64,000 bases of DNA from Stegostoma tigrinum (taxonomy: Eukaryota), in contig NC_081355.1 of assembly GCF_030684315.1 (NCBI RefSeq), positions 29,723,316-29,787,315 of the forward strand. Reading direction: 5' to 3'. Below are positions 5,991 to 60,410 of this stretch, in pieces. The notes beneath the pieces are model-generated. The model was not told where the DNA came from. It made no database searches and saw only the letters and a program-made list of their open reading frames with translations. The translations under genes and the position numbers were made by a program. How positions within the stretch are numbered: the first letter of the stretch is position 1; each line of letters begins with the position of its first letter.

Positions 5991-6198
5991 TTCCTTTGAT
6001 CAGGAAATAAGCTGTTTGGTTCCTGGCTCATGGCAGATAGAATCCTATCATCACTAGTGTTTCTTATAACAAATAAAACTCATTCACTCTCCATGCCCTC
6101 AGTGCCATGACAGAACAAAGCTTGATTTGCATCGGGTTAATCATTTTGAAGAATCCTTCTTTAGGGCAATAGAGACTACTGGGTGGCAAGATTTTCCC

Positions 6199-6391
6199 AG
6201 ATAACAAGGTGTGGAGCTGGATGAACACAGCAGGCCAAGCAGCATCAGAGGAGCAGGAAAGCTGACTTTTCAGGCCTAGACCATTCTTCAGAAAATTCCT
6301 GCTCCTAAGATGCTGCTTGGCCTGCTGTGTTCATCCAGCTCCACACCTTTGTTATCTTGGATTCTCCAGCATCTGCAGTTCCTATTATCTC
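6199..6391. mobile_element. Fold-back Penelope pLTR mini-insertion with 14-bp TSD
   Basis: Inverted arms of the pLTR end; TSD tggca(a/g)gattttcc at 6184-6197 and 6392-6405. Confidence 0.85.
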
Positions 6392-7119
6392 TGGCAGGAT
6401 TTTCCTATTCCTTACCAGTTTGCTCTGAAGAGATTTTTTTAAATGAGTGTCCAGCTCTTCTCTGGAGAGGATTACATTCCAAGATTATTGGATTGGTATC
6501 TAATGATGACAAAGGGAACAAATTTTACTTGAGCTGACATTCTTTTCGACTAAATTGGCAAGGGAGAACCAGGTGTCAGATTTTACATACACAAGGTAAA
6601 ATCTAGATTCAGTATCAGATGGTGGATTTATCTTCAAAACAAAAGCCAACTGGAATAGTGTTTTGCAGAGCATGTTTGTTGAATTCCTGCTAGTAAGATT
6701 TGCTCCTCATTAGGGAGGAAATCACCTTGTTCAAAAGAAAAATACCGCATCTACCACTGCAAGACTAAAAAGTGATCTTTGAGACTAGTTTTGCTTGCTG
6801 AAGGGAATCAATTGAGCCAATTTGCAGATTTTCTTCCCACCAATTTTCCTAGATTTTCACCTTTCTTTTTGCTTTTCCAAGGAGATCATGGCCTATATTT
6901 TGTGTTAGGCAAGACCATCGTAATCAATGGCAATAGGCTTAATAGATTGGAAGGATATTTTCTTCCACCTTGTTCATAATAGGAAAGCAGGCCATGTTGT
7001 AATAAAACTAGAGCATGTGGTGGAGGGGATGAGGGCAGGAAACAGAATAAATTATAGAATCATACGGTACAGGGAGACCCTTAGGTCCATCAAATCCATA
7101 GTGCCAAAAATATACTACG

Positions 7120-7482
7120 TACACTTCCAAATATCCCCACCTCCAACCTCATCTCAAGACCAGCACCCTCTCTCATCCCCGCCTCATTGACCTGTCCGTC
7201 CTCCCTCCCACCTATTGTCTTATCCCATGTCACTGACCAATCCCCATGATTACCTACCTACATTCACCTTTACGAGCTTCACCCCCGCCTCCTTGACCTG
7301 TCCGTCTTCTCTCCCACCCTATCCGCTGCACTATCTACCTGATATCACCACACCCCCCACCACTCTCTATTTATTTCAAAGCCCCCAACCCTCCTTCATT
7401 TCTGCAGAAGGGTCCCGACCCGAGACATCAACTTTCTTACTCCTCTGACGCTGCCTGGCCTGCTGTGTGCACACAGTATTAT
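7120..7482 (+). mobile_element. Penelope-like pLTR fragment, older, with decayed hammerhead motif at about 7402-7430
   Basis: acttccaaatatccccac... matches the ORF C-terminus/pLTR of the 10.5-10.9 kb element; ctgcagaagggtcccgacccgagacatc. Confidence 0.75.
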
Positions 7483-7605
7483 CTTCCTACACTCACCCCA
7501 CTTTTCTGCATTAGGCCCACAGCCTAGAATGTTATGGCCCTTCAAGTGCTCAATAAAGTACTTTTCAAAGATTGGAAGGTTTCTTGCCCCAACTAATGGT
7601 CATTA

Positions 7606-7720
7606 AGTTGCCTGTGGTGCAGTGGTAGCACCCCTACTTCTGGCCAGAAGACCTGAGTTCAAGTCCCACCTGCTTCGGAGAGACGTAATAAAACATGTCT
7701 GAACAGGTTGACTAGAAAAT
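7606..7720 (+). mobile_element. Short tRNA-derived repeat head (related copy at about 11868-11944, minus strand)
   Basis: gtggtgcagtggtagc A box and gagttcaagtccc B box; no complete cloverleaf. Confidence 0.5.
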
Positions 7721-8127
7721 ATTGAATAATAAAATCATCAATTAACTCACCTATCTATCGCTCTGGCTGAATCCTGGCACAATGCAGAAGTACTTGAAGC
7801 AAATATATTTAGCGACTCTGACATTGGAGCTACACTGACCAGTTACTTTCTAATCCTTCTTTCTCCAAACAAGGGTAGATTGATGGATGATCAATTGCCT
7901 TTACTTTTGCTGATGGTATCTGCTCAAGTACACTTTAAACCATCAGCAAGCAATGCTTGGGCACCATAACATTTTCCAGACCAGGCCAGCTTCAAATCCA
8001 AACAGACTAAAAGCACATCCACCATCAGTTGTAATGGGAACTGCAGATGCTAGAGAATTCCAAGATAATAAAATGTGAGGCTGGATGAACACAGCAGGCC
8101 AAACAGCATCTCAGGAGCACAAAAGCT

Positions 8128-8155
8128 GACGTTTCGGGCCTAGACCCTTCATCAG
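8128..8155 (-). ncRNA. Minimal type I hammerhead-ribozyme-like motif in the inverted pLTR
   Basis: Reverse strand CUGAUGA-A-GGGU(CUAG)GCCC-GAAACGUC. Confidence 0.7.
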
Positions 8156-8647
8156 AGAGGGGGATGGGGAGAGGGAACTGGAATAAATAGGGAGAGAGGG
8201 GGAGGCGGACCGAAGATGGAGAGTAAAGAAGATAGGTGGAGAGAGTATAGGTGGGGAGGCAGGGAGGGGATAGGTCAGTCCAGGGAAGACGGACAGGTCA
8301 AGGAGGTGGGATGAGGTTAGTAGGTAGATGGGGGTGCGGCTTGGGGTGGGAGGAAGGGATGGGTGAGAGGAAGAACCGGTTAGGGAGGCAGAGACAGGTT
8401 GGACTGGTTTTGGGATGCAGTGGGGGGGGGGGGGGGTGAAGAGCTGGGCTGGTTGTGTGGTGCAGTGGGGGGAGGGGACGAACTGGGCTGGTTTAGGGAT
8501 GCAGTAGGGGAAGGGGAGATTTTGAAACTGGTGAAGTCCACATTGATACCATATGGCTGCAGGGTTCCCAGGCGGAATATGAGTTGCTGTTCCTGCAACC
8601 TTCGGGTGGCATCATTGTGGCAGTGCAGGAGGCCCATGATGGACATG

Positions 8648-10610
8648 AACGGGCAGCCCTCCGCTCCAACCCCAACCTCACCATCAAACCCGCAGACAAG
8701 GGTGGCGCAGTGGTAGTATGGCGCACTGACCTCTACATCGCCGAGGCCAGACGCCAACTCTCCGACAACACCTCCTACCGCCTCCTCGATCATGACCCCA
8801 CACCCGAGCACCAAACCATCATCTCCAACACCATTCACGACCTCATCACCTCACGGGACCTCCCACCCACAGCCTCCAACCTCATTGTTCCCCAACCCCG
8901 CACGGCCCGTTTCTATCTCCTTCCCAAAATCCACAAACCTGCCTGCCCTGGTCGACCCATCGTCTCAGCCTGCTCCTGCCCCACCGAACTCATCTCCACC
9001 TATCTGGACTCCATTTTCTCCCCTTTGGTCCAGGAACTCCCCACCTACGTCCGTGACACCACCCACGCCCTCCACCTCCTCCAGGACTTCCAATTCCCTG
9101 GCCCCCAACACCTCATATTCACCATGGACGTCCAGTCCCTGTACACCTGCATTCCGCATGGAGATGGCCTCAAGGCACTCCGCTTCTTCCTGTCCCGCAG
9201 GCCCGACCAGTCCCCTCCACCGACACCCTCATCCGCCTAGCTGAACTCGTCCTCACACTCAACAACTTCTCTTTTGACTCCTCCCACTTCCTACAGACTA
9301 AGGGGGTGGCCATGGGCACACGCATGGGCCCCAGCTATGCCTGCCTCTTTGTAGGTTACGTGGAACAGTCCCTCTTCAGCACCTACACAGGCCCCAAACC
9401 CCACCTCTTCCTCCGGTACATTGATGACTGTATCGGCGCCGCCTCTTGCTCCCCAGAGGAGCTCGAGCAGTTCATCCACTTCACCAACACCTTCCACCCC
9501 AACCTTCAGTTTACCTGGGCCATCTCCAGCACATCCCTCACCTTCCTGGACCTTTCAGTCTCCATCTCAGGCAACCAGCTTGTAACTGATGTCCATTTCA
9601 AGCCCACCGACTCCCACAGCTACCTAGAATACACCTCCTCCCACCCACCCTCCTGCAAAAATTCCATCCCCTATTCCCAATTCCTCCGCCTTCGCCGCAT
9701 CTGCTCCCACGATAAGACATTCCACTCCCGCACATCCCAGATGTCCAAGTTCTTTAAGGACCGCAACTTTACCCCCACAGTGATCGAGAACGCCCTTGAC
9801 CGCGTCTCCCATATTTCCCGCAACACATCCCTCACACCCCGCCCCCACCACAACCGCCCCAAGAGGATCCCCCTCGTTCTCACACACCACCCTACCAACC
9901 TCCGGATACAACACATCATCCTCCGACACTTCCGCCATTTACAATCCGACCCCACCACCCAAGACATTTTTCCATTCCCTCCCCTGTCTGCTTTCCGGAG
10001 AGACCACTCTCTCCGTGACTCCCTTGTTCGCTCCACACTGCCCTCCAACCCCACCACACCCGGCACCTTCCCCTGCAACCGCAGGAAATGCTACACCTGT
10101 CCCCACACCTCCTCCCTCACCCCCATCCCAGGCCCCAAGATGACATTCCACATTAAGCAGAGGTTCACCTGCACATCTGCCAATGTGGTATACTGCATCC
10201 ACTGTACCCGGTGCGGCTTTCTCTACATTGGGGAAACCAAGCGGAGGCTTGGGGACCGCTTTGCAGAACACCTCCGCTCAGTTCGCAACAAACAACTGCA
10301 CCTCCCAGTCGCAAACCATTTCCACTCCCCCTCCCATTCTCTAGATGACATGTCCATCATGGGCCTCCTGCAGTGCCACAATGATGCCACCCAAAGGTTG
10401 CAGGAACAGCAACTCATATTCCGCCTGGGAACCCTGCAGCCTAATGGTATCAATGTGGACTTCACCAGTTTCAAAATCTCCCCTTCCCCTACTGCATCCC
10501 TAAACCAGCCCAGTTCGTCTCCTCCCCCCACTGCACCACACAACCAGCCCAGCTCTTCCCCCCCACCTACTGCATCCCAAAACCAGTCCAACCTGTCTCT
10601 GCCTCCCTAA
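8648..10610 (+). pseudogene. PLE reverse transcriptase plus GIY-YIG endonuclease polyprotein, N-truncated, single frameshift near 9212-9215
   Basis: IKPADKGG, FYLLPKIHK, GRPIVS, TMDVQSLYT (ORF 8584-9240); GVAMGTRMGP, RYIDD, CNRRKCYTC, NVVYCIHCTRCGFLYIGET-x-RFAEH (frame of ORF 9306-10610). Confidence 0.93.
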
Positions 10611-10834
10611 CCGGTTCTTCCTCTCACCCATCCCTTCCTCCCACCCCAAGCCGCACCCCCAGCTACCTACTAACCTCATCCCACCTGCTTGAACTGTCCG
10701 TCTTCCCTGGACTGACATATCCCCTCCCTGCCTCCCCACCTATACTCTCTCCACCTATCTTCTTTACTCTCCATCTTTGGTCCGCCTCCCCCTCTCTCCC
10801 TATTTATTCCAGTTCCCTCTCCCCATCCCCCTCT

Positions 10835-10862
10835 CTGATGAAGGGTCTAGGCCCGAAACGTC
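10835..10862 (+). ncRNA. Minimal type I hammerhead-ribozyme-like motif in the pLTR
   Basis: ctgatgaagggtctaggcccgaaacgtc: CUGAUGA and GAAA core boxes, 4-bp helix II, palindromic ACGU helix III; PLE pLTRs are known to carry minimal hammerheads. Confidence 0.7.
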
Positions 10863-12309
10863 AGCTTTTGAGCTCCTGAGATGCTGCTTGGCTTGCTGTG
10901 TTCATCCAGCCTCACATTTTATTATCCACCATCAGTTGGTTATCTTCAAACTTTGGCAGCAACATCATTCTGCAAAGAGAATGAGTTTGAAAGAAGTAGC
11001 TGTCGCTTCAATCACATGTGAGGGAGATAATGACTCTCTAATAGTGTAATATCTCAGATGTGTACCTTGCTACATTTTTTTCCTGTGATGATAAACAATG
11101 GATAAAACCCTTCCCCTATTTAAACCACAGACTTGATGATGCACCTTTAATTCCTGCTGTTGGACATTATCAAATGTTATCACATTTTTTCTTCTTTCAA
11201 ATGATACGCTCACACGGAATTTTTTAATGCGATTTTTATAATGCTGCTTTAGATTTCCATGCATTATATTTTGAAAGGCAACTTGACTTGATGGCTGTCT
11301 TCATTTGCATAGGTTGAAACTGTTAAAGCCACTGCTGGAAGTACCTTAGAAAATTTTAATATTTGATTTCTTTCAATTCTCACTGAGAGCAGCTGTCATA
11401 AACCAGGCACCCAATTTGGAAGCACCCCTTGGACATAATTCAGCCATGTTAGTTTAACCGTGGCAAGTAAAACAGCTGTTAAATAAATTTAAACAATAGT
11501 CACAGCTTTTGGCATTGTACATTGGTAGAGCTGCCATTTTAAGAATATGAGATATGCAATAAAACTTGCAAAAAGCAAGTTATCCAATGCCATCACATGT
11601 TTATTTTGGTTAACATCAGTTGCCTGACAGATAAATTAAAGTCAGCACCAGAGTTAAACGTCTCCAAACATAACTACTAAGAAATCCAAACCTGCAGTTT
11701 GTTCATTCTGCACTGAAATTCCCTATTGGCCCAACTCCAGAGAACTTCAGGGCAACTTGAGGGCCTGAAGGATCATGTGTACTATGGAATCAGCAAATGG
11801 GTGGGGTTACATTGTTGCCACCAATCTTCATTTCGTTATGTTTTCTAATTAATCTATGAGGCAATAATATTACACACCCCTGGAATGGGCAGGACTTGAA
11901 CCTAGTTCTCCTAGCTCAGAGGTGGGGATACTACCACAGTGCCTTTTGACAAATGACAATCAAGGATGGATCACTTGTGATGCTGAATTAGAAAAGACAC
12001 TTGTCTTAATAAGATGTAGTTGATTACATTATAACAATAGGCGTAAGTTGCTTTACTAGTTAGATATGACTAAGTAAATGCATCTGGAGACAATGATGAC
12101 ATGTCTGTCACCATCTGAATCTTGAGCTAAATGTCTCTTGTTAATCTAAAACCATGTAACATCATTGAACAGTGCTAAATATTAACTTATTAGGAATCAG
12201 TACCCTCTACAATATCATCAATATTCTATCCCCATACAACCCACTCCCTACAACTCTAAGGTTGAAAGGTTTTCCACTTGCGCATCCAATAAATACCAGA
12301 TTAATTCAG

Positions 12310-13416
12310 CAGTCCAAGCATCATCTTAGGAGCACAAAAGCTGACATTTTGGGCCTAGACCCTTCATCAGAAATGGGGGAGGGGAAGAGGGTTCTGAAAT
12401 AAATAGGGAGGGGGGGGTGCAGATCGAAGATGGATAGAGGAGAAGATAGGTGGAGAAGAGACAGACAAGTTAAAGAGGCGGGGATGGAGCCAGTAAAGGT
12501 GAGTGTAGGTGGGGAGTTAGGGAGGAGATAGGTCAGTTCAGGGAGGATGGACAGGTCAAGGGGGCAGGATGAGGTTAGTAGGTAGGAAATGGGGGCATGG
12601 CTTGAGGTGGGAGGAGGGAATAGGTGGGAAGGAGGATAGGTTAGGGAGGCAGGGACAAGCTGGGCTTGGTTTGGGGTGTGGTAGGGGAGGGGAGATTTTG
12701 AAACTTGTGAAATCCACATTGATACCATGGGGCTACAGGGTTCCAAAGTGGAATATGACCTTCAAGTGGCATCGTTGTGGCACTGCAGAAGGCCCAGGAT
12801 GGACATGTCATCTGAGGAATGGGAGGGGGAGTTGAAGTGGTTCGTGACTGGGAGGTGCAGTTGTTTATTGCAAACCAAGCGTAGGTGTTCTGCAAAGCGG
12901 TCCCCAAGCCTCCGCTTGGTTTCCCCGATGTAGAGGAGGCCACAATGGCTACAGCGGATGTAGTATACCACATTAGCAGATGTGCAGGTGAACATCTCCT
13001 TGACATGGAAAGTCTTTCTGGGGCCTGGGATGGGGGTGAGGGAGGAGGTGTGAGGGCAAGTGTAGTACTTACTGCGGTTGCAGGCAAAAGTGCCGGGTGT
13101 GGTGGGGTTGGAGGGGAGTGTGGAGTGGACAAGGGAGTCCCGGAGAGAGTAGTCCTTCCGGAAAGCAGACAACGGTGGAGAGGGAAAAATGTCTTTGGTG
13201 GTGGGGTCGGATTGTAGATGGCGGAAGTGTTGGAAGATGATGCTTTGGATCCAGAGGTTCGTGGGGTGGTTCGTGAAAATGAGGGGGATTCTTTTTTGGT
13301 GGTTATTGCGGAGACAGGATGTGAGGGATGAGATGCAGGAAATGCGGGAGACAAGGTCGAAGGCGTTCTCGACCACTGCTGGGGGAGAAGTTGCGGTCCT
13401 TGATAAACGAGGACAT
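12310..13416 (-). mobile_element. Second Penelope-like copy, 5'-truncated (linker, GIY-YIG, pLTR), decayed
   Basis: ORF 12762-13376 NVVYYIRCSHCGLLYIGETKRRLGDRFAEH, homologous to ORF 9306-10610; small deletion near 12760; hammerhead motif at 12343-12370 with CpG decay. Confidence 0.92.
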
Positions 13417-19400: not shown

Positions 19401-19818
19401 ACTGCATCCTCTAACAATCCTGAAAACAATGACGGAGAAGAGCAAGTTCAGCAGAAAGTATGGATTAGACTTACATTTTTCTTAAAAAGACCTGACTGAC
19501 TAAGGAAGGATTGAGGAAAGTAAGAAGTGCCACAGTCTCAAATTCCTCACAATTAATTAAGGTTGAAGAGTGAGGGCAGGAGACAGAAACTCTCAGACAT
19601 CAGCTGACTTAATCTGTTGTTTAGGAATTTCTAGTGCTTGCTTGAGGACAGATAAGAGATAGTTACGACTAAGCATGATTTGTCACTGAGTCAGACTTTA
19701 TCAGAATATCATCGTTCTTCTCACTAATGTTGCAGCAATTCTGATCACAAAATAACACAGATTTGTAAACATCTATAAACCTGACAAAATTAAGAAAAAG
19801 ATCGAACTTTCATTTATA

Positions 19819-19938
19819 GATAACACAACGAGGACCTGGAGGAACATGGCAGGCCAGAAAGCATCAGAGGTGCAGGAAAATTGACACTTCGGGTCGAGAC
19901 CCTTCTGACTCCAGCATCTGCAGTTCTTACTATCTCTA
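19819..19938. mobile_element. Minimal fold-back Penelope pLTR insertion with 14-bp TSD
   Basis: TSD aactttcatttata at 19805-19818 and 19939-19952; reverse pLTR end joined to forward tail ctccagcatctgcagttc. Confidence 0.8.
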
Positions 19939-20049
19939 AACTTTCATTTATATAGTGCCTTTCACTTTCTTAATACATTCCAATGTGTTTCTCAGCCAAT
20001 AAGTTTACACGGTATCTGAAGGTAATCACTATACTATTTTAGTATTAGT

Positions 20050-21800
20050 TTTGGATCAGTTGGTAGTGGTCTCCCCTCTAAGTCAGGAGATTGTGTGTAC
20101 AAGTTCTGCTGCAGAATCTGAGCATATGATTTATCACCACCACTCTAATTCTGATGGCGATATGGATGCAAAGTGGTGCCAACCTCAAGCAAGTGGTGCT
20201 GATATTACCACCAAAACCGAGAACTGAATATTCTGAACCACTGCTACACAGCCATCAAAGATGCCTACTGCTCAATCCCCGATCCACACTTCAGAAAATC
20301 CGACCACAGCGCTATGTTCCTCCTCCCTGTTTACAAGCAGAAGCTGACCAGGAGAATCCTTCACAAAACGAAGCATGGTGCTGGTCCCAGGCAGCAGAAA
20401 TCTGTTTCTGGGGCTGCTAGGACTCAATGGGTTTGGACCATGTTCAAGTATTCAGTAGAAAACCTATTGGTGTATGCCAACACCTTCATGGTCTTCATTC
20501 GTAAATATGCGGAGGGCTGTGTACCAAAGAAATAAATCCAAGCGTTCCCCAACCATAAACCTTGGATGAACCAGGAAGCCCACTCCTTACTCAAGACCAG
20601 ACGTGAAGCATCCAAGTCGGGTGATCCTGATCGATACAGAAAATCCAGATCTGACCTCTGCAAAGCCATTAGAGAGGCCCAGGGGCAGTACCAGAGCAAG
20701 TTAGAGGCCCAGACCTACCAAACAGGCTCCCACCATCTATGGCAAGGCCTAAACAACATTATGCGATGTAAAATGAAACAGCGCAAGATAGCAAACAATG
20801 ACACATCCCTCCCTGACACGCTCAATGCTTTCTGAGCTCGGTTTGAGCAGAATACCATCAGTGTGACAACACGTGCCCTGAAAGCCCCAGAATCCATCTG
20901 TCACTGCTTCAGAAATCAGCAGATCGGTTTTCCTGGGAGTCAACCCAAGGAAAGCGATGGGCCTGGACGGTGTCCCCAGCTGAGCACTCAGATCCTGTGC
21001 AGACCAACTAGTGGAGGTATTCATCAACATCTTCAACCTCTCCCTCCTACAAGCCAAAGTCCCCAACTGCTTCAAGAAGACCACCATCATCCCAGTGCCC
21101 AAGAAAACACATGTGATGTGCCTTAATGACTACCACCCACTGACTCTGACTTCAATAATCATGAAGTGCTTTGAGATGCTGGTCATGGCCCATATCAACT
21201 CCAGCCTCCCAACTTGACTCAATCCCCTACAGTTTGCCTACAGATATAACAGGTCCACAGAGGATGCCATATCCTGAGCACTGCACTCAACCCTGGAACA
21301 CCTGAACAACAAAACCACCTACATCAGACTCCTGCTCGTTGACTGCAGCTCTGCCCTCAACATGATTATCCCCACCGGACTGATCTCAAAACTCTGTGAC
21401 CTTGGTCTCAGCTCCACTCTCTGCAACTGGATCCTCAGCTTTCTGCCCCACAGGCCGCAATCAGTGAGTATCGGTAACTGCACCTCCTCCACAATAACAC
21501 TCAACACTGGAACCCACGCCCGTCCCTGCCAAGGATACATCGTCAGCCCCCTATTGTATTCCTGTATTTTGGTACACGTGACAATAAATTCAATTAATGA
21601 ATCAATCTATCCATCTATCTTTTGGGGAATTGTTAAACTAAAACCTTGCCTGCCCTCTCAGTCAAACATGTAATGGCATTTTTCCAATGAGGGCAAATGG
21701 GAACTTTTTCTGCTGCTCTGGGTAATATTTATGCTTCAACAACATTACAAAAACAGATCATCTGGTCATTATCTCTTTGATTGTGGAATCTCTTTACTAA
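20050..21800 (+). mobile_element. Deu-domain SINE split by a Rex/Babar insertion (head about 20050-20130, body about 21615-21800)
   Basis: tRNA-like head ggatcagttggtag...caagttc; body ...aatatttatgcttcaacaacattacaaaaacagatcatctggtcattatc. Confidence 0.5.
20150..21610 (+). mobile_element. Rex1/Babar-type LINE, decayed, internally deleted
   Basis: [42 protein letters not shown]; jumps from the RT motif B region to the tail gtgacaataaa. Confidence 0.85.
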
Positions 21801-26412: not shown

Positions 26413-26414
26413 AG

Positions 26415-26630: not shown

Positions 26631-27724
26631 AAAAAATGTGTAAAAGCATTACCAACACTGAGTCAGTTCTACCATCCAGTCAGGTCATGGGTAATCTTAA
26701 TCCCACCTGCCCAACTTTGTTCACTAAACCTCAAAACAAAATCTTTGACAAATGAAAAGAAATCTAACTAACTCAGCTTTGGAAGTTTCCACTGATGTAG
26801 CTTGAAACGTTTAGGTGAAGGGTGTTTCAGACTTCTGCTACCCTCCTGGCATGCAGCTAAAATGCTTCTTGACACCACCCCTTATTGGTGCAGCTATAAT
26901 TTTAAGATCATGATAGCTTGTTTTGGGCTCTTGCACCAGAAAGAAATAATTTTCCTCCACCTACTCTAACAAATCCTTTAATTATCTAAAATGATACAAT
27001 CAGATCACCTGTTAAGCTCCTGTATTAATAGGAAAGCTAACACAGTTTCTGCAATCTATATGCACAATGAGGTTTACTGATTACGTTTTTAATAAAAGGT
27101 TGCCCACAACTTAGCTTGATGAATTATTCAACTGTCTCTTCTCAGTGACTTGACAAAGGGAGGGCTTAACTTTTTGAACAATAGGCAACAGCAGTTAGCA
27201 GCAGTAAAAAGGGGGAAAAATGGGGTGACTCAACCTCAAAACTACAAAAAAGGCCACTACATTTTGACTTTGTGAAGCTATTTCCTCAGAGGCCTGTGAA
27301 GGGCCCTGAAAAGTCGATGCTGAAATCTGTTTTCTCCCAACTGATTGACACTTGTGGGTTTTGCCTGAGTAAATACCACAGTCCAAGACTCAGGTATTTG
27401 CTCAGACTGATACCGAAGGATTACCAAAACCATAGCTGGAGGAAAGCAATAAAGATCTTTGTGGTAAAACCCAGCTCTGTCGACTGTCCTGTGCACATAA
27501 CGAGAATTGGAGTAAAAGGAATCTTAAAATACATGTCTGCTTTAAAGGGGACATAAAGGATCTGAAAAAAGATTTATCTGAATAGATATCAGGAGTATCA
27601 ACCTCCTTTTTTTTAATAATTGATAATCTATACTATCACTTACATTCTAAGGCTTTCCCAAGACATTGTTTCCAAAGGCTGAAGAGGTTGAGTCATATCA
27701 TTAAAAGGACTCAATTATAACTTA

Positions 27725-27968
27725 GATAATAAAGTGTGAAGCTGGATGAACACAGCAGGCCAAGCAGCATCTCAGGAGCACAAAAGCTGACGTTTCGGGC
27801 CTAGACCCTTCCAGAACCCTCACCCCATCCCCCTCTCTGATGAAGGGTCTAGGCCCGAAACGTCAGCCTTTGTGCTCCTGAGATGCTGCTTGGCCTGCTG
27901 TGTTCATCCAGCTTTACACTTTATTATCTTGGATTCTCCAGCATCTGCAGTTCCCATTATCACTGATA
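27725..27968. mobile_element. Young fold-back Penelope pLTR insertion with 13-bp TSD
   Basis: Near-perfect arms 27725-27810 and about 27843-27929; TSD caa(t/c)tataactta at 27712-27724 and 27969-27981. Confidence 0.9.
27837..27864 (+). ncRNA. Minimal hammerhead-ribozyme-like motif
   Basis: Identical to 10835-10862. Confidence 0.7.
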
Positions 27969-28549
27969 CAACTATAACTTAAATGAGTTATTAAGAACAG
28001 ATACCATTTTCTTCAATGATTGGTTCTTGCAATGTAACAGCCACTGTAAGCATGTTCTCTGATGTATTTCTACTTGAAATCCTAAATCTACTCTTCCAGA
28101 CCAATGCATTCCTCACTTAGAACAGGAACACAAATTTGTATTTACATAGTGCCTTAGAACTGTAAAATGCTCCAAGGCATTTCACAAGAGCATTATGGAC
28201 AAAATTTGGCCTTGAGCTATTATTAGGGGATATTAAGGGCAGGTAACTAAAGGTTTGTCAAAGATCTAAATTTTAAGAGGCAATGAAAACTTCAGCAGGA
28301 TTTGGAGGAATGCAGAGTTCTTGGAAAACTCTGGAGACAGTTAGGTGAGATAATGAGGGATTCAAACATAAGAACAAGAAAGTTTAAATTTAACACAAAT
28401 TGGACTGAGAATCAAGTTATGCCAGTGAGTTCGATGTGAACATGCAGAAATAACTATTTTGAGAGAGTGAGCCCCCAAATTAGAGTCTGAACACAGAGGC
28501 AATGACTGAGAGGTTTACATGGGTGAAAACTTGGCCCATATTTAGTGAA

Positions 28550-30433: not shown

Positions 30434-30439
30434 TGAAGG

Positions 30440-32490: not shown

Positions 32491-32524
32491 CCTGCCTGCC
32501 ACTGTAGTTAACTCAACTCAGCCA

Positions 32525-43172: not shown

Positions 43173-45706
43173 CCATAAGACCATAAGACATAGGAGTGGA
43201 AGTAAGGCCATTCGGCCCATCAAGTCCACTCTGCCATTTAAATCATGGCTAATGGGCATTTCAACTCCACTTCGCTGCACTCTCCCCGTAGCCCTTGATT
43301 CCTTCTGAGATCAAGAATTTGTCGATCTCTGCCTTGAAGGCATCTAACGTCCCGGCCTCCACTGCACTCCGTGGCAATGAATTCCACAAGCCCACCACTC
43401 TCTGGCTGAAGAAATGTCGTCTCATTTCAGTTTCAAATTTACCCCCTCTAATTTTAAGGCTGTGCCCACAGGTCCTAGTCTCCCCGCCCAACGGAAACAA
43501 CTTCCTTCGCGTCGACCCCTTCTAAGCCATACATTATCTTGTAAGCTTCTATTAGATCTCCCCTCAACCTTCTAAATGCTAATGAATACAATCCCAGGAT
43601 CCTTAGCCCTTCATCATACGTTAAACCTACCATTTCAAGGATCATCCGCGTGAATCTCTGCTGGAGACGCACCAGGGCTAGTATGTTCTTCCTGAGGTGT
43701 GGGGCCCAAAATTGGACACAGTATTCTAAATGGGGCCTAACTAGAGCCTTATAAAGTCTCAGAAGCACATCACTGCTTTTATATTCCAAACCTCTTGAGA
43801 TAAACGACAACATTACATTCGCTTTCTTAATCACGGACCTAACCTGCAAGTTAACCTTTAGAGAATCCTGGACCAACACTCCCAGATCCCTTTGTACTTC
43901 TGCTTTACGAATTTTCTCACCATTTAGAAAATAGTCCATGCCTGTATTCTTTTTTCCAAAGTGCAAAACCTCACATTTGCTCACGTTGAATTTCATCAGA
44001 TATTTCCTGGACCACTCTCCTAAACTGTCTAAATCTTTCTGCAGCTTCCCCACCTCCTCAGTACTACCTGCCTGTCCACCTATCTTCATATCATCGGCAA
44101 ACTTTGCCATGTCCCCAGTCCCTTCAACCAGATCATTAATATATAAGGTGAACAGTTGCGGCCCCAACACTGAACCCTGCATGACACCACTCGTCACCGG
44201 TCGCCATTCCAAAAAAGAGCCTTTTATCCCAACTCTCTGCCTTCTGTCAGACAACCAATCCTCAACCCAAGCCAGTAGCTCACCTCGAACACCATGGGCT
44301 TTCACCTTGCTCAGCAGCCTCCCGTGAGGCACCGTATCAAAAGCCTTTTGGAAGTCTAGATAGATAACACCTACTGGATTTCCCTGGTCTAACATACTTG
44401 TTACCTCTTTAAAGAATTCTATCAGGTTTGTCAGGCACGACCTCCCCTTACTAAAACCATGCTGACTTGTTCTAATCTGACCCTGCACTTCCAGGAATTT
44501 AGAAATCTCATCCTTGACAATGGATTCTAGAATTTTACCAACAACCAAGGTTAGGCTAATTGGCTTATAATTTTCCATCTTTTGCCTTGATCCTTTCTTA
44601 AACAAGGGGGTTACAACAGCAATTTTCCAATCATCTGGGACTTTCCCTGACTCCAGTGACTTTTGAAAGATCACAATCAAAGCCTCTGCTATTTCCTCAG
44701 CCACCTCCCTCAGAACTCTAGGATGTAACCCATTGGGGCCAGGAGATTTATCAATTTTTAGACCTTTTAGCTTTTCTAGCACTTTCTCTTTTGTAATGCC
44801 TACCATACTCAACTCTGCCCCTGAATCTCCCTAATTGTTGGCAAACTACTCATGTCTTGCACTGTGAAGAATGACGTAAAGTACTTATTAAGTTCTTCAG
44901 CTATTTCCTTATCTCCCATCACTAGCCTCCCAGCATCAATTTGGAGTGGCCCAATGTCTACTTTTGTCTCTTTTTTGTTTCTTATGTATTCAAAAAAGCT
45001 TTTGCTATCATTTCTAATATTACTAGCTAGCCTACCTTCATATTTGATCCTCTCCTTCCTTATTTCTCTCTTTATTATCCTCTGTTTGTTTTTGGAGCCT
45101 TCCCAATCTTCAGATTTCCCAGTGCTCTTGGCCACTTTATAGGCTGTCTCTTTTTCTTTGATATATTTCCTGACTTCCTTTGTCAGCCATGGCTGTCTAA
45201 TCCCACCCTGGATAATCTTTCTTTTCTCTGGGATGAACCTCTGTACTGTGTCCTCAATTACACCCAGAAACTCCTGCCATTGTTGCTCTACTGTCTTCCC
45301 CGCTAGGCTCTGCATCCAGTCAATTTTCGTCAATTCCTCTCTCATGGCCCCGTAATTACCTTTATTTAACTGTAACACCATTACATCCGATTTTGCCTTC
45401 TCTCTTTCAAACTGCAGACTGAACTCTCCCATATTATGATCGCTGCCTCCTAAGTGTTCCCTTACTTTAAGGTCTTTTATAAAGTCCGGCTCATTACATA
45501 GCACTAAGCAGAATAGCCTGCTGCCTTGTGGGCTCCATCATATGCTGTTCCAAAAAGCCATCCTGAAAACATTCCATGAATTCCCTTTCTTTGTCCGGCA
45601 ACACTATTCACCCAATCCACCTGCATATTGAAGTCCCCCGTGATCACCGTGACCTTGCCTTTCTGACATGCCCTTTCTATTTCTCGGTGCATCTTGCGCC
45701 CCTGGT
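43173..45706 (-). mobile_element. Young 5'-truncated CR1 LINE (partial endonuclease, RT, 3' UTR)
   Basis: Consecutive ORFs 45504-45731 (ITGDFN), 44809-45504 (LGGSDHN), 43475-44812; tail ccataagaccataagac. Confidence 0.95.
43475..44812 (-). pseudogene. CR1 ORF2 reverse transcriptase segment (445 aa open, frameshifted at both ends)
   Basis: KSPGPNG, NYKPISLT, QHGF, YLDFQKAFD, QGSVLGP, KFADD, RPHLEYCVQFW. Confidence 0.92.
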
Positions 45707-45958
45707 TCCAAAGAAGTCTTGAGAATGTCAAGTTGTAAACAGCAATGCTTTGAATTGCCCACTTATTTCCAAGTTAAAAATGATTAGGAGTCTTAAAGAT
45801 ATCAAATCAACATTTCCATCTAGATACAAGGCCCATGTGATTCACATTATCATTAAATGTTTTCTCAATGATGTTCCTGTGGTTCGCAGACAAAGTTAAT
45901 CTGCCAGGAACAATAGGAGACAGAGAGGGAGCAGTTAAAGGAAATGTCTCTGTGATGT

Positions 45959-46042
45959 GAGAAGAGGGTCTAGGCCCGAAATGTTAGCTTTTGTGGTCCT
46001 AAGATGCTGCTTGGCCTGCTGTGTTCAGCCAGCTCCACACTT
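45959..46042 (+). mobile_element. Short pLTR-end insertion with 14-bp TSD
   Basis: TSD tgtctctgtga(t/c)gt at 45945-45958 and 46043-46056; gggtctaggcccgaaatgttagc. Confidence 0.75.
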
Positions 46043-46056
46043 TGTCTCTGTGACGT

Positions 46057-46176
46057 CCCCATTTCTGAAGAAGGATCCAACCCGATTCGTCAGCTATCCT
46101 GCTCCTCTGATGCTGCCTGGCCTGCTCCACACTGTGTTATCTTTTGCTCCAGCATTGGCAGTTCTATCTAGCTCTG
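46057..46176 (+). mobile_element. Older pLTR end with tail
   Basis: ctgaagaaggatccaacccgattcgtcagc...ctccagcattggcagttc. Confidence 0.7.
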
Positions 46177-46554
46177 TTTCTATGATCTGCCATGCAGAGA
46201 TATATGCAGAAGCTCATGTTTAAGCTGGTAAGAGCAAAATCATGAGGATATGAAAAGGAAGCTGGTAGATTTTCCTCTTTTGTGCTAGAGGAAAGACTGC
46301 CAGCAGAAACTCTCACCAGGAAAGACCATTCTGGATTTAAAATTTCCAGACTGAAGAAGGAAAGGAATGAAAGCAAACACTTGGGGGTTAAAAATCACTT
46401 TGACTTTTCTCAAGAAAATTTAAACAACTACTTCCAAAGTAGTGTAATGTGAAGTGGACTTTACAGTTGTATTGAAAGTAAAAGAGGATGTCTGTTCTAT
46501 TGTTTATAGTATAAATGTCTATAACAACAGTGTTTAGTCAACAGTGTTGTTAGT

Positions 46555-46638
46555 TTATAAAATGTGAGGCTGGATGAACACAGCAGGCCAAGCAGCATCT
46601 CAGGAGCACAAAAGCTGACGTTTCGGGCCGAGACCCTT
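46555..46638 (-). mobile_element. Young pLTR-end fragment
   Basis: Nearly identical to 8066-8149; no convincing TSD. Confidence 0.85.

Positions 46639-46845: not shown

Positions 46846-46846
<1 letters not shown>

Positions 46847-46912
<66 letters not shown>
46847..46912. repeat. (TG)33 microsatellite
   Basis: Perfect dinucleotide run. Confidence 0.98.
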
Positions 46913-46916
<4 letters not shown>

Positions 46917-51900: not shown

Positions 51901-52228
51901 AGCCAAGGTGTTTTCCCTGGGGTAGGGAGAGTCCAAAACAACAGGGCAAAGGTCTAAGGTGTAAGGGGAAAGATTTAAAAAGTACCTAAGGACAACATTT
52001 TCACTCAGAGGGTTGTGCGTGTACGGAATGAGCTGCCAAAGGAAGTGGTGGAGGCTGGTACAATTGCAACATTTAAAAGGCATCTGGATTGTTACATGAA
52101 TAGGAAGGGCTTAGAGGGAAGTGGGCCAAATGCTGGCAAATGGGACTAGATTTATCTGGGATATCTGATCGGCATGGACGGGTTGGGCCAAAGGGTTTGT
52201 TTCTGAGCTGTACATCTATATGATTCTA
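48990..52228 (+). mobile_element. Decayed CR1 with 5' UTR, ORF1 (Zn-finger/leucine zipper plus SGNH esterase-like), RT and tail; endonuclease region missing
   Basis: MWE..DDYVCRKC..LQ; DSLVRGTDRHFCG; VIVHIGTND; then YGPVSLTS, QHGF, PQGSVLGP, KFADG. Confidence 0.88.
50098..50449 (-). mobile_element. tRNA-headed SINE nested in CR1 ORF1
   Basis: Reverse strand ggaggcaatggcctagtggtattatc...ctcgaatcctgc; homologous to 3915-4264. Confidence 0.8.
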
Positions 52229-54185: not shown

Positions 54186-54345
54186 TTTTTTTGTTATTCA
54201 CTCCTGGGATGTGGGCATGACTAGCTGGGCCAGCATTTCTTATCCATCCCTTGTTGCCCTCGAGAAGGTAGTGAACTGCCTTTTTGAACTATTGTTGTCC
54301 ATTGTGCTGTAGGTAGATCCACCACACCTTTAGGGAGGGAATGTC
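54186..54345 (-). mobile_element. 3' tail fragment of the CR1/L2-group LINE
   Basis: Matches 4855-5010. Confidence 0.7.
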
Positions 54346-55127
54346 CTCTGCAATTCATTTAAAAACTTGGTCCATTTGATCCAGCTTAAAGCATAAGTCA
54401 TAATTTTACTTCAAGCCTCTGATGCTGGAAGATAGAACTGAGATATCAGGACATCTAATGTGTTTTAACTGATATTTGGAAATTTTGGAATAGAAGTAAC
54501 ATGGTCAGATTATGAGAAAACAATTTAGCTTTATAAAAGTTTCTTCAGTTCAGAAGCCCTTCCACCATTATCTCATAGAATCAACTTCTAAAATCTTGCT
54601 CATCCTGACCTGATGAGTTCCAGTTTTTTATTTCTTAACATTCAAACTTTACCATGCAAACCCAGTGTTTCACACCCATCACCCTAAACTTGCCAACCCT
54701 TTATTTTCCTCTGCATTTCGAGGCTTCAAATTCAAAGTACCTCCATTATCCTCACTAATAAACCCAACCATGATCTTACCCTACTTTGCATCCTCCAACA
54801 TCACCAGTCCTAAATCATTACCCTAAGTCATTTGGTCCTCTGACTCTGGTCTTCTGTCCAATCCACTCTCTGCACGCTGAAACTTAGCAACACATACTTC
54901 GCTGACCCAACCCTGAACTTCTTGAACTTTCTAAAACCCCATGGCCTTCCAACTCATAGTACATCTTTAAAATCCTCGGTAAAGCATCAGGGTGCTGAGC
55001 GTTCATGCTGCTGTTTGGCATCTGCTTCTGCTTCATGAAGTGCTTTGAGATGTTTTCTAAACTTCATGTTGAAAAATGTTGAACTACTCATCAGCAGAGT
55101 GGATGTTCCACACCCTCTTTATCCCTC

Positions 55128-55309
55128 CACTGAACACCCTTGATTGGCTGTAATATTTTGGAAGCATTGTCCTGCATGTCAACATGAGACTCCCCAAGCA
55201 GGCACTCTATTCCCAGCTCTGAAACAGCAGGTAAGCCCAAATGGACACAGGAAGCACTTTGGTGATACTGGAAAAGTGTGGCATTACAGCCGACACCTGC
55301 GAATCACTT
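55128..55309 (+). repeat. 182-bp direct duplicate of 56411-56592
   Basis: Manual alignment: no gaps, 8 mismatches. Confidence 0.9.
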
Positions 55310-56199
55310 AGCAGATGTTGCCATTGCCAAAGTTCTGGGGGTCTGTCTCAAAACCCAGGAAAAGGGGTCATGCTCCTGGGTCTGCTGCTCAATTTGAAAC
55401 ATGTTTAAACAGAGCCTTGTCTCTCCTTATTATATGAATTTGAATCCCATTTTCCAAACAAGATCATAAGGCAGTCTTTACTTTGCCATTCATACTTCAG
55501 AGCTTGTTGCCGTGGTATGTGAACACACAAAGTCTGCAGTGTATCTTATGGTATTTCTTGCAGATAAGCTTATTTCCTCTGCTGCTTTGCACTATTGCAA
55601 AGCAGGCGCTGCAATCTTTTTCTAAGGTCATAAACAGAGGGAGATGTAGAAATAAATCATTCCACAGTATCAACCCTCACTTTTTCTGTATACTTTCCCC
55701 AGGCCCTCTTCCCAAATCTTCCATTCTTCCAGTTCTCTCCTCCCACTCTTGGAATTGCTGCCCAAATCTCAGCAATGGAGATTTTACCTTTAGGTTAAGG
55801 AATCCCCTCAATCAACCATTTGATTCATTCACTATTCTTTAAGATCCTCTGAAGATTTATCTCATAACAAGTTATTTACTACCCCAAACAATATTTTTAT
55901 TTTCATTTAATGTTTGTGAAAATCTTTGGGACATTTTCTCCATTGTAGGTCTCCACTGTAAACGAGAATTGTTGCTGATATTGAGAGGACAGCATTTTTT
56001 TTTTCCACGAAACAGCTCCATATTGCAGATACAGTACATAATTTCCTGAATGATTCAGCCTGTTTTAAGTCTAATGCAGGGTTTCTTTAACATATTTGTA
56101 CATCTTGGATGAATAAAATCGCATTGCTAATTTGAAGTGCATCTTTGTTTTTAAAGGTGAGCAGATGAGAGAAAGTAGTCACAGATCCAGCTATCTCGA

Positions 56200-56866
56200 G
56201 GATGTTCGAGGGCAACAACAGATCTGACACCAAGATCATGGTTCACAGAGCTGTGGTGGTTCCCACCCTTCTATATGGCTCTGAGATGTGGACTGTCAAT
56301 AACAGGCACCTCAAGGCATGGGAGCAGTACCATCTATTGCTGACATACCAACACCAGCGTTGTCAAGCAGGCCAACATCATCAACCAGGCCAATATCCCC
56401 AGCACTGGGGCACTGACTACCCTTGATTGGCTGTAATAGGTTGGAAACATTGTCCTGCATGTCAACATGAGACTCCCCAAGCAGGCACTCTATTCCCAGC
56501 TCTGAAACAGCAGGTAAGCCCAAATGGACACAGGATGCACTTTGGTAATACTGGAAAAGTGTGGCATTACAGCCGACACCTGTGAATCACTTGCCCAAGA
56601 CTGTCTGAAGTGCCAGAGGAGCACCCAGGAAGGCACTGAGCACCATGAGGGCTGCCATCGGGAAAAAGTGGAAGCTATGCAAAAATGGTGAAAGGAGCAC
56701 ACTGCCATACCAATGTCCCACACACCCTTTCCCGCAACTATCTTCAGCCCCAAATGTGGCAGGGTCTGTGGAAGCCCCATTGGACTAGACAGCCACCTAC
56801 TGACTCACTCTGAGAATGGAAGAGAGCCATCCTCATTTGTGAGAGGCCATCAGTGATAATGATGAT
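56200..56866 (+). mobile_element. RTE-clade LINE 3' fragment, decayed
   Basis: DTKIMVHRAVVVPTLLYGSEMWT; C-terminal C-x2-C...H-x3-H remnant; (tga)n-like tail. Confidence 0.8.
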
Positions 56867-58011
56867 ATCCCAAGCTGAATGAAAGCTTGGGGTGGTGAGC
56901 TGAGGTTATCTCCTTGTCAAGTTTTAAGATTCTGTTCTGGAACCCCAGATATCAGATTCACAAGGTATCATGGATTTACCAGAGTGGCTTGTTGCTGAGG
57001 TGTTCTCCTCTTAATTATATCCTGACTCCATTTTGGAGCACGAGTCTTATTTATGCACCTAAGTGATACCAAGAGTACAATATTTTTTGGCTGATTACTT
57101 TTACTGTGGCTGAGATAGCTACGTCAGCCAGCTCACAACCAACAATCAACATGATGCTGCCACCACTGACAATTTGTGAGACGGATGAATACAACAGGGG
57201 CTGTAGTGTCAAACATGCTAGCACTTCATGTTATGAATGCTATACATGTTTAGTGTCATAGGCTATTTGGTATATATGATGAGGGCTACGTATTGTTTGT
57301 TCTATATGAGTAGTGCAAGGTATTGTTATTGTTATACATAGTTATTACCATACATTGAAAAGGGCATATATCGCAAGTGATATGTATTGTCTTTCCCCTT
57401 TTGGAATCCTTACAACTATTGTAAGTACTTCCTAGGGAACATCCATCTTTCTTCAGCTCGAGCAGCAGTCCAAAGACAAAGTAAAGCCAGAACACATCAT
57501 CCATCGTTTAAAACTCAGGCTCAAGAGCCAAAATAAATTCACTTGTCTGTTCACTTGTTTGAACTTCAGTTTTACAAATGACTGCAAGGGCAGACATCCT
57601 TCTTGGTCACACTAGCTAGGTTTGAAGGAGTTTTCCCAAACCCTGGTCTGGTGATTGTGGTTTGTGTCAGTTGATAGATTGGCCAGCTGCACCGTGTGAG
57701 CAGAGCTGTGAGACTCAGAGGCCATTGCTTGAGGTTAGATATACTTTTGAGCCAGGAATTTTAAAAATAGAATTTGTTGTGCTTATGGTGGAGGAAAACC
57801 ATTGCTGGCCTGATGAGATGTTCATGTAGTTTATTGTTTGTTATCAATGTAATTGTTTCTTAAACATTGTTACAAAGATTTCTTTGAGGTACTAGACCCT
57901 TCTCCCACCACATTCTTTTAATATCACTATAGTGGGTGGTGTTTAACATGCCTCAGTATTCACCCCCTCAGACATTTTAAAAACATGATACAATAATCTG
58001 CTGTGCAAATA

Positions 58012-60410
58012 TTGATTTATTTATTGTCACCTGTACAATACAGTGAAAAGCTTTGTTTATGAGTGTTACAGGCAGATCACAGTAAGCAAAGAACGTACAG
58101 ATCAAAAAGACTTAGAGACATACAGGTTACATTGCATAGCGCATGCACTACACAAGATCAATGTTAGCAAGATCAGTGTTATTTGAGGCTAGAGAGTCGA
58201 ATCATCGGTCTGATAATGTCAGGGAAGAAGCTATTCCTGAACCTGCTGGTGCGTATGTTCAGGCTTCTGTATCTTCTGCCTGATGGAAGAGGTTGTAGGA
58301 GGGCATCAACAGGGTGTGATGGGTACTTGATGATGTTGGCAGCCTTTCTGCAGCAGTGCACCAATTAAACAGAGTCCGTGGATGGAAGGTTGGCTTCCGT
58401 GATGGTGTGGGCTGTGCACACCACCTTCTGTGGTTTCTTACAGTCCTGGGCAGAGCAGTTGCCTTACCAGGCTGTTGCGCACCCGGACAGTATGGTTTCT
58501 ATGGTGCATCTGCAGAAGTTGGTGAGGGACCTTATGGACATGCCAAATTACCTGAGCTGCCTGAGGAGGAAGAAGAAGCGTTCTTGTGCCTTCTTGACTG
58601 TCGCATCTACATGGCAAGTCCAGAATGGGTTGTCAGTTATCGCCACTCTAAGGAATGTGATGCTTTTCACCCTATTAAACTCAGTTCCATTGATGTAGAT
58701 GGGGCATGTTCTCCTACTTTCTTTCTGAGGTCAATGATCAAATCTTTAGTTCTGCCAATGTTGAGAAAGAGGTTGTTTTCATTGTATCACTTCACCAAGC
58801 CCTCTATCTCCCTTCTGTAGTTTGATTTGTTGTTAGATATCCGTCCCATCACGGTGTTGTCGTCAGCGAACTTATAAATGGTGTTCATTCAGAATTTGAC
58901 ATCAAAATGGTAGGTGTGCAGGGAATACAGTAAGGGATTGAGGACGTATCCTTGTGGTGGGTTCCAGTGTTGAGTGTTATTGTGGAGGAGGTGCAGTTAC
59001 TGATACTCACTGATTGCGGCCTGTGGGGCAGAAAGCTGAGGATCCAGTTGCAGAGAGTGGAGCTGAGACCAAGGTCACAGACTTTTGAGATCAGTCCGGT
59101 GGGGATAATCATGTTGAGGGCAGAGCTGTAGTTAACGAGCAGGAGTCTGATGTAGGTGGTTTTGTTGTTCAGATGTTCCAGGGATGAGTACAGGGTTAGG
59201 GGTATGGCATCCTTTGTGGACCTGTTATGTCTGTAGGCAAACTGTAAAGGATCGAGTCAGACTGGAAGGCTGGAGTTGATATGGGCCATGACCAGCATCT
59301 CAAAGCACTTCATGATTATTGAAGTCAGAGTCACTGGGTGGTAGTCATTAAGGCACATCACATGTGTTTTCTTGGGCACAGGGATGATGGTGGTCTTCTT
59401 GAAGCTGTTAGGGGCTTCGGCTTGTAGGAGGAAGAGATTGAAGATGTTGACGAATACCTCCACTAGTTGGTCTGCACAGGATCTGAGTGCTCAGCTGGGG
59501 AGACCGTCCAGGCCCTTGGGTTGACTCCCAGGAAAACCAATCTGATTTCTGAAGCAGTGACAGGGGGAACAGGTGTGATGGGGCTGTCAGGGCATGTGTT
59601 GTCACACTGATGGTATTCTGCTCAAACCGAGCTCAAAGCATTGAGCATGTCAGGGAGTGATGTGTCATTGTTTGCTATCTTGCGTTGTTTCATTTTACAT
59701 CCCATAATGTTGTTTAGGCTTTGCCATAGATGGTGGGAGCCTGTTTGGTAGGTCTGGGCCTCTAACTTGCTCTGGTACTGCCCCTGGGCCTCTCTGATGG
59801 CTTTGCGGAGGTCAGACCTGGATTTTCTATATCGATGCAGGTCATCCAACCTGAATGCTGCCTGGTCTGGTCTTCAGGAGGGAGTCGGCTTCCCGGTTCA
59901 TCCAAGGTTTACGGTTGGGGAACACTCGGATTGGCTTCCTTGGTACACGGTCCTCCACACATTTCCTAATGAAGTCCATGGGCATACACGTCTCTGTTTT
60001 CTACTGAACACTTGAACATGGTCCGGACCTTTTGAGTTCTAGCAGTCCCAGAAACAGTTTTCTGCTGCCTGGGACCAGCACCATCCTTCGTGCTGTGAAG
60101 GATTCTCCTGTTTCAGCTTCTGCTTGTAAACAGGCAGGAGGAACACAGCTATGACACAGTGAGGAGCTGTAGGAACACACAGGTCAGGCAACATCAGAGG
60201 AACAGGAAAGTTGACATTTTGGGTTGGGACCCTTCTTCAGAAAATAGGGTCCGGACCCAAAACATCAACTTTCTCGCTCCTCTGATGCTGCCCGGCCTGC
60301 TGTGTTTCTCCAGCTCCTCATTGTATTATCTCAGACTCCAGCATTGGCAGCTCTTGCTATTCCCCAGGAGGAACACAGCACTGTGATCTGATTTTCCGAA
60401 ATGTGGCAGA
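58012..60410 (-). mobile_element. Rex1/Babar-type LINE, decayed, with complete 3' end
   Basis: ORFs 59257-59463, 58885-59112, 58179-58364 (LPSGRRYRSL..RTSRFRNSFFP); KFADD at about 58858-58872; tail gtgacaataaataaatcaat. Confidence 0.88.
60150..60364. mobile_element. Fold-back Penelope pLTR insertion nested in the Rex/Babar copy, 15-bp TSD
   Basis: TSD caggaggaacacagc at 60135-60149 and 60365-60379; inverted pLTR arms. Confidence 0.88.

Follow-up and report, generated by a model that had tools for sequence, protein, structure and literature searches.

Two-armed Penelope-like insertions in Stegostoma tigrinum pair one short with one tailed end, a regularity consistent with coupled twin priming on a single RNA

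The stretch of Stegostoma tigrinum DNA analysed here (64,000 nucleotides of contig NC_081355.1, positions 29,723,316 to 29,787,315; hereafter the window) contains five insertions of a Penelope-like element (PLE), numbered 1 to 5 from left to right, each with two outward-facing arms inside a target-site duplication (TSD). We have found that in such insertions one arm stops at a short site and the other reads on into a tail in 142 of 145 joined outward-facing pairs. With a probability of roughly two in three, we consider these insertions to be products of the ordinary insertion reaction of this PLE family, by a coupled twin priming in which both nicked target strands would prime on one RNA at two sites ending in ATTATC and the resulting cDNAs would be end-joined. 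The initial annotation of the window had placed the five insertions, with their arms and TSDs, where we also find them, and had read them as repeated products of one two-strand priming mechanism; this reading is supported by the pairing rule, the TSD length peak, the internal junctions and an empty site.

Positions are given relative to S, the last base of the motif TTATTATC at the 3' end of the pseudo-long terminal repeat (pLTR), which is position 0 (10926 in the window). The tail-less arm has its end at S (S end), and the other arm continues into the tail and ends near +33 or further on (L end). Pair counts come from sampled loci, most within the initial 13 Mb of contig C1 and 30 spread over the genome. 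The first set, 124 merged segments that total 594,169 bases with the window, yielded 306 arm ends, among which 107 pairs of neighbours faced outwards. Nine of these pairs were set aside because over 60 bases between their arms had no explanation (7 S+L, 2 L+L; three with a TSD). The 98 joined pairs left comprised 97 S+L, one L+L without TSD and no S+S. The second set (L155-L230), selected on 5' junctions, contained 45 S+L among 47 pairs, the two others being S+S, one with a TSD and one in a complex element. Tails are thus not distributed at random over the arms, as the initial annotation had anticipated. Some first-set loci were chosen on a tailed end, a choice that cannot favour S+L over L+L. 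The rule also holds for older pairs, with an arm below 85% identity (12 of 12). A single TSD encloses both arms in 84 of the 98 joined pairs of the first set, and the same pLTR end is included in both arms in all scored pairs and in four of the five window insertions. Genome-wide (assembly of 3.2 Gb in 835 contigs), 101,176 exact 26-nt arm ends were counted, 61,988 of which run into the tail. This share of more than one half was not used as a test of the pairing rule, since trimmed S ends would miss the exact pattern and internal pLTRs would count as tailed. The two-arm form is not the sole product of the family: besides five at a locus edge, there were 95 single arms (100 in total), and 37 of the 95 have their own TSD (22 L and 15 S). 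These 15 single S arms with a TSD, and the arms of insertion 3, which do not overlap, show S to be an independent end.

TSDs were called by end-anchored searches, which replaced an unrestricted upstream search that had picked element-internal repeats. The predicted length peak is present, at 13–16 bp in 77 of 87 first-set pairs, and 31 of 39 TSDs in the second set measure 13–17 bp; the range over sampled elements is 9–21 bp. Those of single arms are shorter (9–15 bp), often with microhomology at the 5' side, and some single arms retain a few-base remnant of a second arm. Outside the TSD we found an A-rich motif, in mirror image on the two sides, with its peak at -7, where A occupies 119 of 174 flanks in the first set and 39 of 78 in the second (background A, 28%). 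The same preference at both nicks is what a two-fold symmetric nuclease would show. The arm ends, described as invariant in the initial annotation, proved tight only: S ends lie at -2 to +1 in 59 of 87 pairs and L ends at +33 to +36 in 53 of 87, with a range of +29 to +53. A second ATTATC closes at +33, which means that the S and L sites, 33 nt apart, end in the same hexamer. Of 156 tailed arms, 107 have a loose ATTATC close to S and 137 have one close to L. Folding of the RNA from -95 to +78 gave no stable structure (z +1.16), so that a stem-loop at the start sites cannot be claimed. The overlap between primer and template at the ends is 1.4–1.5 nt versus 0.44–0.57 nt in a one-sided null, a weak signal that is inflated by maximal TSD calling.

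The two arms of an element are also coupled in length and sequence. Among 94 simple pairs, 59 have two short arms (at most 105 nt), 29 have two long arms and six join a short S arm to a long L arm, with no case of the reverse (Fisher test, 1e-18). In four long young pairs the arms differ from each other by 0–0.3%, versus about 3% from other copies, and the partner arm is closer than the median stranger in 50 of 62 pairs. Three loci (L016, L032 and L120) have a private fusion that is common to their two arms. In these fusions the 5' region of the element is joined to its 3' pLTR, and they are apparently internally deleted, non-autonomous sources mobilised in trans. The junctions of the 94 pairs comprise 41 insertions, 25 blunt joints or 1-nt overlaps and 28 microhomologies. 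That the internal junctions all differ had been noted from the window, and the larger sample agrees, with 54 kinds among 59 short elements. The junction of L049 (2319-2331) is filled with telomere-like AACCCT units, and in L058 and L135 126–150 nt of non-element DNA were captured between the arms within one TSD.

The arms also have recurrent 5' limits. Of the 251 arms with 85% identity or more, 26 have their first base at -96/-95, 14 at -92 and only four at -97 to -99. Genome-wide, a non-reference base precedes -95 in 11,730 arms; for the first 100 of these listed it is G in 70, T in 24 and A in six. In 70 of those listed loci, G stands before -95 at 13 of the 19 junctions without inversion and at 15 of the 19 that are inverted and have added bases, giving 28 of 38 for junctions that the partner arm does not account for. 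Reverse transcriptases (RTs) are known to copy the cap. The extra G and the sharp limit at -95 could well reflect run-off at the capped 5' end of the RNA. In L083 the putative start lies within a pyrimidine run (-96 to -90), which we take to resemble the TCT initiator. A second step is seen at the predicted cut of a hammerhead ribozyme: 33 arms start at -64 to -46 versus five at -83 to -65, these windows having been set around the predicted cut and paired arms not being independent. Cut and uncut classes are coupled between partner arms (17/1/5/36). The pattern of a minimal hammerhead motif, as described in PMC4209133, is present in the pLTR, and its cleavage is a prediction. A search of Rfam returned no hammerhead match at E<=0.1. 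It did return three weak microRNA-family matches that fall on short fold-backs (6213-6342, 60166-60314), far below gathering scores.

The reaction that we propose would run as follows. The GIY-YIG endonuclease, probably as a dimer, would nick both strands about 13–15 nt apart, each nick lying a few bases inside an A-rich motif. The TSDs and the mirrored motif are observed, and the dimer is suggested by the symmetry of the target and by a prediction made for an anole PLE. Each 3'-OH would then prime the same RNA at one of the two internal sites 33 nt apart, one strand taking S and the other L; the pairing is what we counted, and for priming we rely on analogy with the anole element in vitro. 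Both RTs would copy towards the 5' end of the RNA, so that the downstream RT would have to displace the upstream cDNA. Where the sites are near the RNA 5' end, both arms would stop at or before -95 (the capped start) or -63 (the hammerhead cut) and leave a fold-back of 100–250 bp; the breakpoints follow this pattern, and the RNA ends are our reading of it. Priming on the 3' pLTR would give long arms. Finally, the cDNA ends would be joined through microhomology, as blunt ends or with short insertions, and a very short or resected cDNA may yield a one-armed insertion with a shorter TSD. More tentatively, and with the balance tipped slightly against it, a two-arm insertion might be the default reaction of PLEs generally, with a symmetric dimer on a mirrored motif, asymmetric loading on one RNA and one-armed copies as trimmed products.

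Several observations weigh against coupled twin priming as we describe it. Most of the sampled loci come from a single 13-Mb stretch at the start of contig C1, and the pairing rule has exceptions in L012 (L+L without TSD), L162 (S+S with TSD) and L228 (a complex S+S call). The extra G has other possible sources, being present at -96 in five of nine read-through copies of the selected set, and a remnant of the partner arm can supply it too. The genome-wide peak at -63 is modest, with about 4,300 arms estimated (from 5,943 matches with a purine in 72 of the first 100 listed) versus 2,687 and 1,695 at two control positions, and a 4-nt palindrome at -63 inflates it. In 12 of 62 pairs the partner is not closer than the median stranger, and it is the closest arm of all in only 12 of 62; arm identity could come partly from gene conversion. 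In the anole system in vitro the start site was alike on both strands (PMC11167929), a result that neither predicts nor excludes coupling on each single molecule.

Two other routes to the same products are conceivable, although both are unlikely. In one, a single strand primes at L and its cDNA folds back to serve as its own template; the second copy would end at S, through cutting or arrest, and the tail would be a resolution scar. Parts of this model are outlined in the literature, as self-priming at palindromic junctions (PMC3846280) and as a tail left by endonuclease-mediated resolution (PMC8557442). It would account for near-identical arms, for coupled lengths and for perfect palindromic centres (of the first 100 matches listed, 12 have their centre at the ribozyme cut). 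However, a copy cannot exceed its template, and the L arm is the longer one in only 12 of 29 long pairs; in insertion 2 L measures 571 nt and S 2,249 nt. Moreover, 15 single S arms carry their own TSD, the arms of insertion 3 do not overlap, and the S and L sites share their terminal hexamer. Each of these features (S longer than L, S-only copies, insertion 3 and the common hexamer) would require later deletions, and the model is thereby weakened. Hardly more probable is a reaction on two RNAs, in which each subunit of a dimer primes its own RNA from the same locus, the RNAs perhaps being joined by a dimeric hammerhead. The minimal type of hammerhead folds only as a dimer (PMC4209133), mutual cleavage would couple the cut and uncut classes, and RNAs from one locus would give near-identical arms. 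Yet this model does not explain why each event pairs an S with an L end (142/145), and an independent choice of the 5' or 3' pLTR leads us to expect about 42 mixed pairs in 94, where six were observed.

The remaining explanations fit the sample poorly. Two independent insertions at one site, or later rearrangement or gene conversion, would be in keeping with the clustering and nesting of PLE copies (the arm at 45956 against an older arm; the composite locus L012). This is a far less probable origin than either route above, since a single TSD surrounds both arms in most joined pairs, partner arms share private variants and fusions, and the S+L rule would not follow. Least credible of all is a fixed, non-autonomous element of about 220 bp amplified as a unit in the manner of a miniature inverted-repeat transposable element (MITE). 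Many short elements do measure 180–250 bp, and there are more than 100,000 exact arm ends; this size cluster follows from the -95 limit. The 54 junction kinds in 59 short elements exclude a fixed MITE, sizes run from about 100 bp to 5 kb, the ends are asymmetric (S+L in 142 of 145) and the TSD is of variable length (9–21 bp). For the sample the MITE is therefore refuted, neither internal sequence and size nor TSD length being fixed and the terminal inverted repeats not being symmetric. The statement of the initial annotation that this is not a fixed MITE is borne out.

The five window insertions illustrate these features. Insertion 1 has a 14-bp TSD with one mismatch (6184-6197 and 6392-6405, plus strand). 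Its S arm (6198-6292, minus strand) has its 5' end at -92 and a degenerate hammerhead core at 6264-6291, and its L arm (6300-6391, plus) starts at -55, downstream of the ribozyme cut, and ends at +35. In insertion 2 the L arm (8032-8646, minus) includes the end of the endonuclease region, the pLTR, a hammerhead core (8128-8155) and the tail (8032-8063). The S arm (8647-10926, plus) holds a 5'-truncated, frameshifted open reading frame (ORF) and the pLTR up to the S end at 10926. On this arm the putative RNA 5' end, position -95, falls at 10831 (plus), followed by a minimal hammerhead core at 10835-10862 (plus) with a predicted cut at 10862/10863 (position -63). The TSD copies of insertion 2 (8020-8031 and 10927-10938, plus) measure 12 bp, the left copy being 8017-8031 when 3 nt that overlap the element end are included. 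Insertion 3 lies between exact 14-bp copies (19805-19818 and 19939-19952, plus); its S arm (19819-19905, minus; 5' end at -86) is of an older subfamily, 73% identical to the reference, and abuts an L micro-arm (19906-19938, plus) that has the tail only and does not overlap the S arm. The 13-bp TSD of insertion 4, with one mismatch, occupies 27712-27724 and 27969-27981 (plus). Its S arm (27725-27811, minus; 5' end at -86) overlaps by 3 nt the L arm (27809-27968, plus; -119 to +40), in which are found a hammerhead core (27837-27864) and two ATTATC copies (27923-27928 and 27956-27961, plus). Insertion 5 sits within a long interspersed element (LINE), with a 15-bp TSD (60135-60149 and 60365-60379, plus), an S arm of an older subfamily (60150-60241, minus) and an L arm (60246-60364, plus) that ends at +36. 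A paralogous copy of this LINE (20284-20444, minus) contains the TSD sequence once and no PLE, and the rebuilt empty site is 88% identical to it over 162 nt. An empty site already holding both repeat copies, the observation named in the initial annotation as fatal to its reading, was thus not encountered for insertion 5. For the other four insertions no empty site was found among the window and the fetched loci.

Some details of the initial annotation have to be adjusted. TSDs of 13–15 bp are seen in four insertions, and that of insertion 2 reaches 15 bp only with the 3-nt element overlap; with swapped flanks the same TSD score was reached in 3 of 400 cases. The family was called ribozyme-bearing, and a hammerhead core is matched in three of the five insertions, one of the three degenerate. 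Both arms were taken as pLTR 3' ends, which fails for the right arm of insertion 3, a tail alone. The mechanism was said to be recorded five times; the two-arm insertions do number five, and the window also has six single arms that had been omitted. A single S-type arm with an 11-bp TSD (45956-46042, plus) is a one-armed product of the same PLE family; it adjoins an older tailed arm (46056-46176) and, with a third arm (46553-46638), forms a local cluster of PLE ends. Older one-armed copies without recognisable TSD (72–77% identity) are found at 131-268, 7134-7493 and 12279-13416, the last retaining 1.1 kb on the minus strand, including the endonuclease region.

The window insertions appear, from their encoded motifs, to derive from a Neptune-type, endonuclease-bearing PLE. 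The S arm of insertion 2 encodes DKG (8695), YIDD (9417) and VVY-YIG (10182-10238), and Pfam RVT_1 and GIY-YIG matches occur in that order, RT then C-terminal endonuclease, both below cut-offs. Between them lies a CX4CxxC linker (CNRRKCYTC, 10074-10100). The CCHH residues of the endonuclease are also recognised, with CIHCTRC between the GIY and YIG half-motifs and histidines at 10269 and in HFH (10317-10325). According to PMC8557442, a CX2-5CxxC linker between RT and endonuclease is common to Neptune and Nematis and absent from Penelope and Poseidon, which makes the element Neptune or Nematis; the label Neptune-type was chosen for the linker and because the groups widespread in vertebrates are Neptune and Poseidon. 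The ORFs are frameshifted in the copies seen. The full natural arrangement is present in L083, a unit of 3,528 bp with a 14-bp TSD, in the order inverted S arm, partial 5' pLTR, tail, frameshifted ORF, 3' pLTR and tail. It thus displays the partial-tandem pLTRs, the inverted 5'-truncated copy and the 30–40 nt tail of a PLE. The closest protein homologues start at an ATG at +75, which puts the S and L sites in the 5' untranslated region (UTR). Three relatives of the N-terminal domain were found, all in carpet sharks. The PLE N-terminal domain is also contained in two proteins from sharks (P0001 and P0002), which bear the annotations prostatic acid phosphatase-like and mucin-2-like and are probably gene models that absorbed element sequence. 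A sequence search of the PDB found no PLE structure.

Other repeats are present in the window. Inverted copies of a decayed LINE with RT-like reading frames (20311-21562 and 58922-60149) are 89% identical over 1,262 nt; we take this LINE to be Rex1/Babar-like. Another LINE on the minus strand (43475-45537) has an RT domain (Pfam RVT_1, E 2.5e-30) and is presumably CR1-like; decayed 3' ends of similar LINEs are numerous across the window. A 182-nt direct repeat (55128-55309 and 56411-56592; 96% identical, 1,283 nt apart) lies in fragments of another LINE-like sequence.

If the two-arm insertion is indeed the default reaction, every insertion would start as two overlapping cDNAs, with one subunit for each hexamer-ended site, and the tail and the inverted pLTRs would be explained in one step. 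The genome would then record two RNA 5' ends, the capped start and the hammerhead cut, and would provide in vivo evidence that the minimal hammerhead of a PLE is active and that its cleaved RNA goes on to be retrotransposed. The counts point to a hexamer as candidate for recognition, to a target motif and to two 5' ends of the RNA, and they frame direct tests in the existing in vitro system, namely of start-site use by strand and of copying from one RNA. Tens of thousands of 100–250 bp hairpins in this genome could pass for MITEs or microRNA precursors. Such a reaction, in which a site within the RNA serves to fill the staggered cut on its two sides, is also relevant to RNA-templated gene insertion.

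Most of the ingredients are already published: inverted pLTRs with a TSD and one tail, two RT starts, extension on both strands and a predicted dimer. Inverted pLTRs, TSDs and a one-sided tail are known for endonuclease-bearing PLEs (PMC3846280, PMC8557442), and it is treated as an open question how the inverted pLTRs and the single tail arise (PMC8557442, PMC11167929). For Neptune- and Nematis-type PLEs the tail is ascribed to resolution of an intermediate, and the available passages of PMC8557442 give no figures for how tails pair, how long TSDs are or where 5' breakpoints fall, which were counted here. The Penelope of Adineta vaga resembles our element in its inverted pLTRs with TSD, its palindromic inverted junctions, its empty allele (confirmed there) and a 31-bp tail that is optional on one inverted pLTR; it differs in having few copies and TSDs of 8–10 bp versus 13–16 bp here, and was explained by self-priming on an antisense template (PMC3846280). 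In the literature searched we found no near-strict rule of one site per strand, although part of the model may be contained in subscription papers, namely the Penelope studies of 2004–2006 and the one on L1 twin priming. Nor did this literature yield a mirrored A-rich target motif, coupled arm lengths, a sharp 5' limit at -95 with an extra G or a second step at the hammerhead cut. The accessible parts of PMC9977147, PMC8969392, PMC11371274, PMC2718515 and bioRxiv 10.64898/2026.07.22.740005 add nothing to this question.

The closest experimental system is Poseidon PAc of Anolis carolinensis, in which both strands are nicked and extended in vitro, a dimer is predicted, two internal RT starts bound the tail and uncleaved RNA is the main template (PMC11167929). 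PAc belongs to the Poseidon clade, unlike the Neptune-type element of the window; its start sites lie 111–118 nt inside the ORF at an AC-rich stem-loop, whereas those proposed here lie in the 5' UTR and end in ATTATC. The available text of PMC11167929 does not mention inverted products, TSDs or strand coupling, though its supplementary figures S1-S2 may bear on inverted products. It reports no RNA reads at the ribozyme cut, where the insertions studied here do show a step. The hammerhead resembles the minimal metazoan PLE motifs of PMC4209133 in the extra base between 9 and 10.1, the lack of loop 3 and the palindromic stem III; unlike them, its helix I can form only 2 bp. Such motifs also occur 100–700 bp apart on opposite strands, and no in vivo evidence of their cleavage is reported in the part of PMC4209133 available. 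The proposed reaction also has a counterpart outside PLEs. In LINE-1 twin priming both target 3' ends prime one RNA and the cDNAs are joined through microhomology inside one TSD, the two segments being consecutive and the second site random. The arms studied here overlap instead, their start sites are fixed and the two-arm form is very common. The PLE reaction works like LINE-1 twin priming and is not that process, its segments not being consecutive. The element and its architecture are thus of a known kind, and the new value lies in a regularity that constrains the mechanism.

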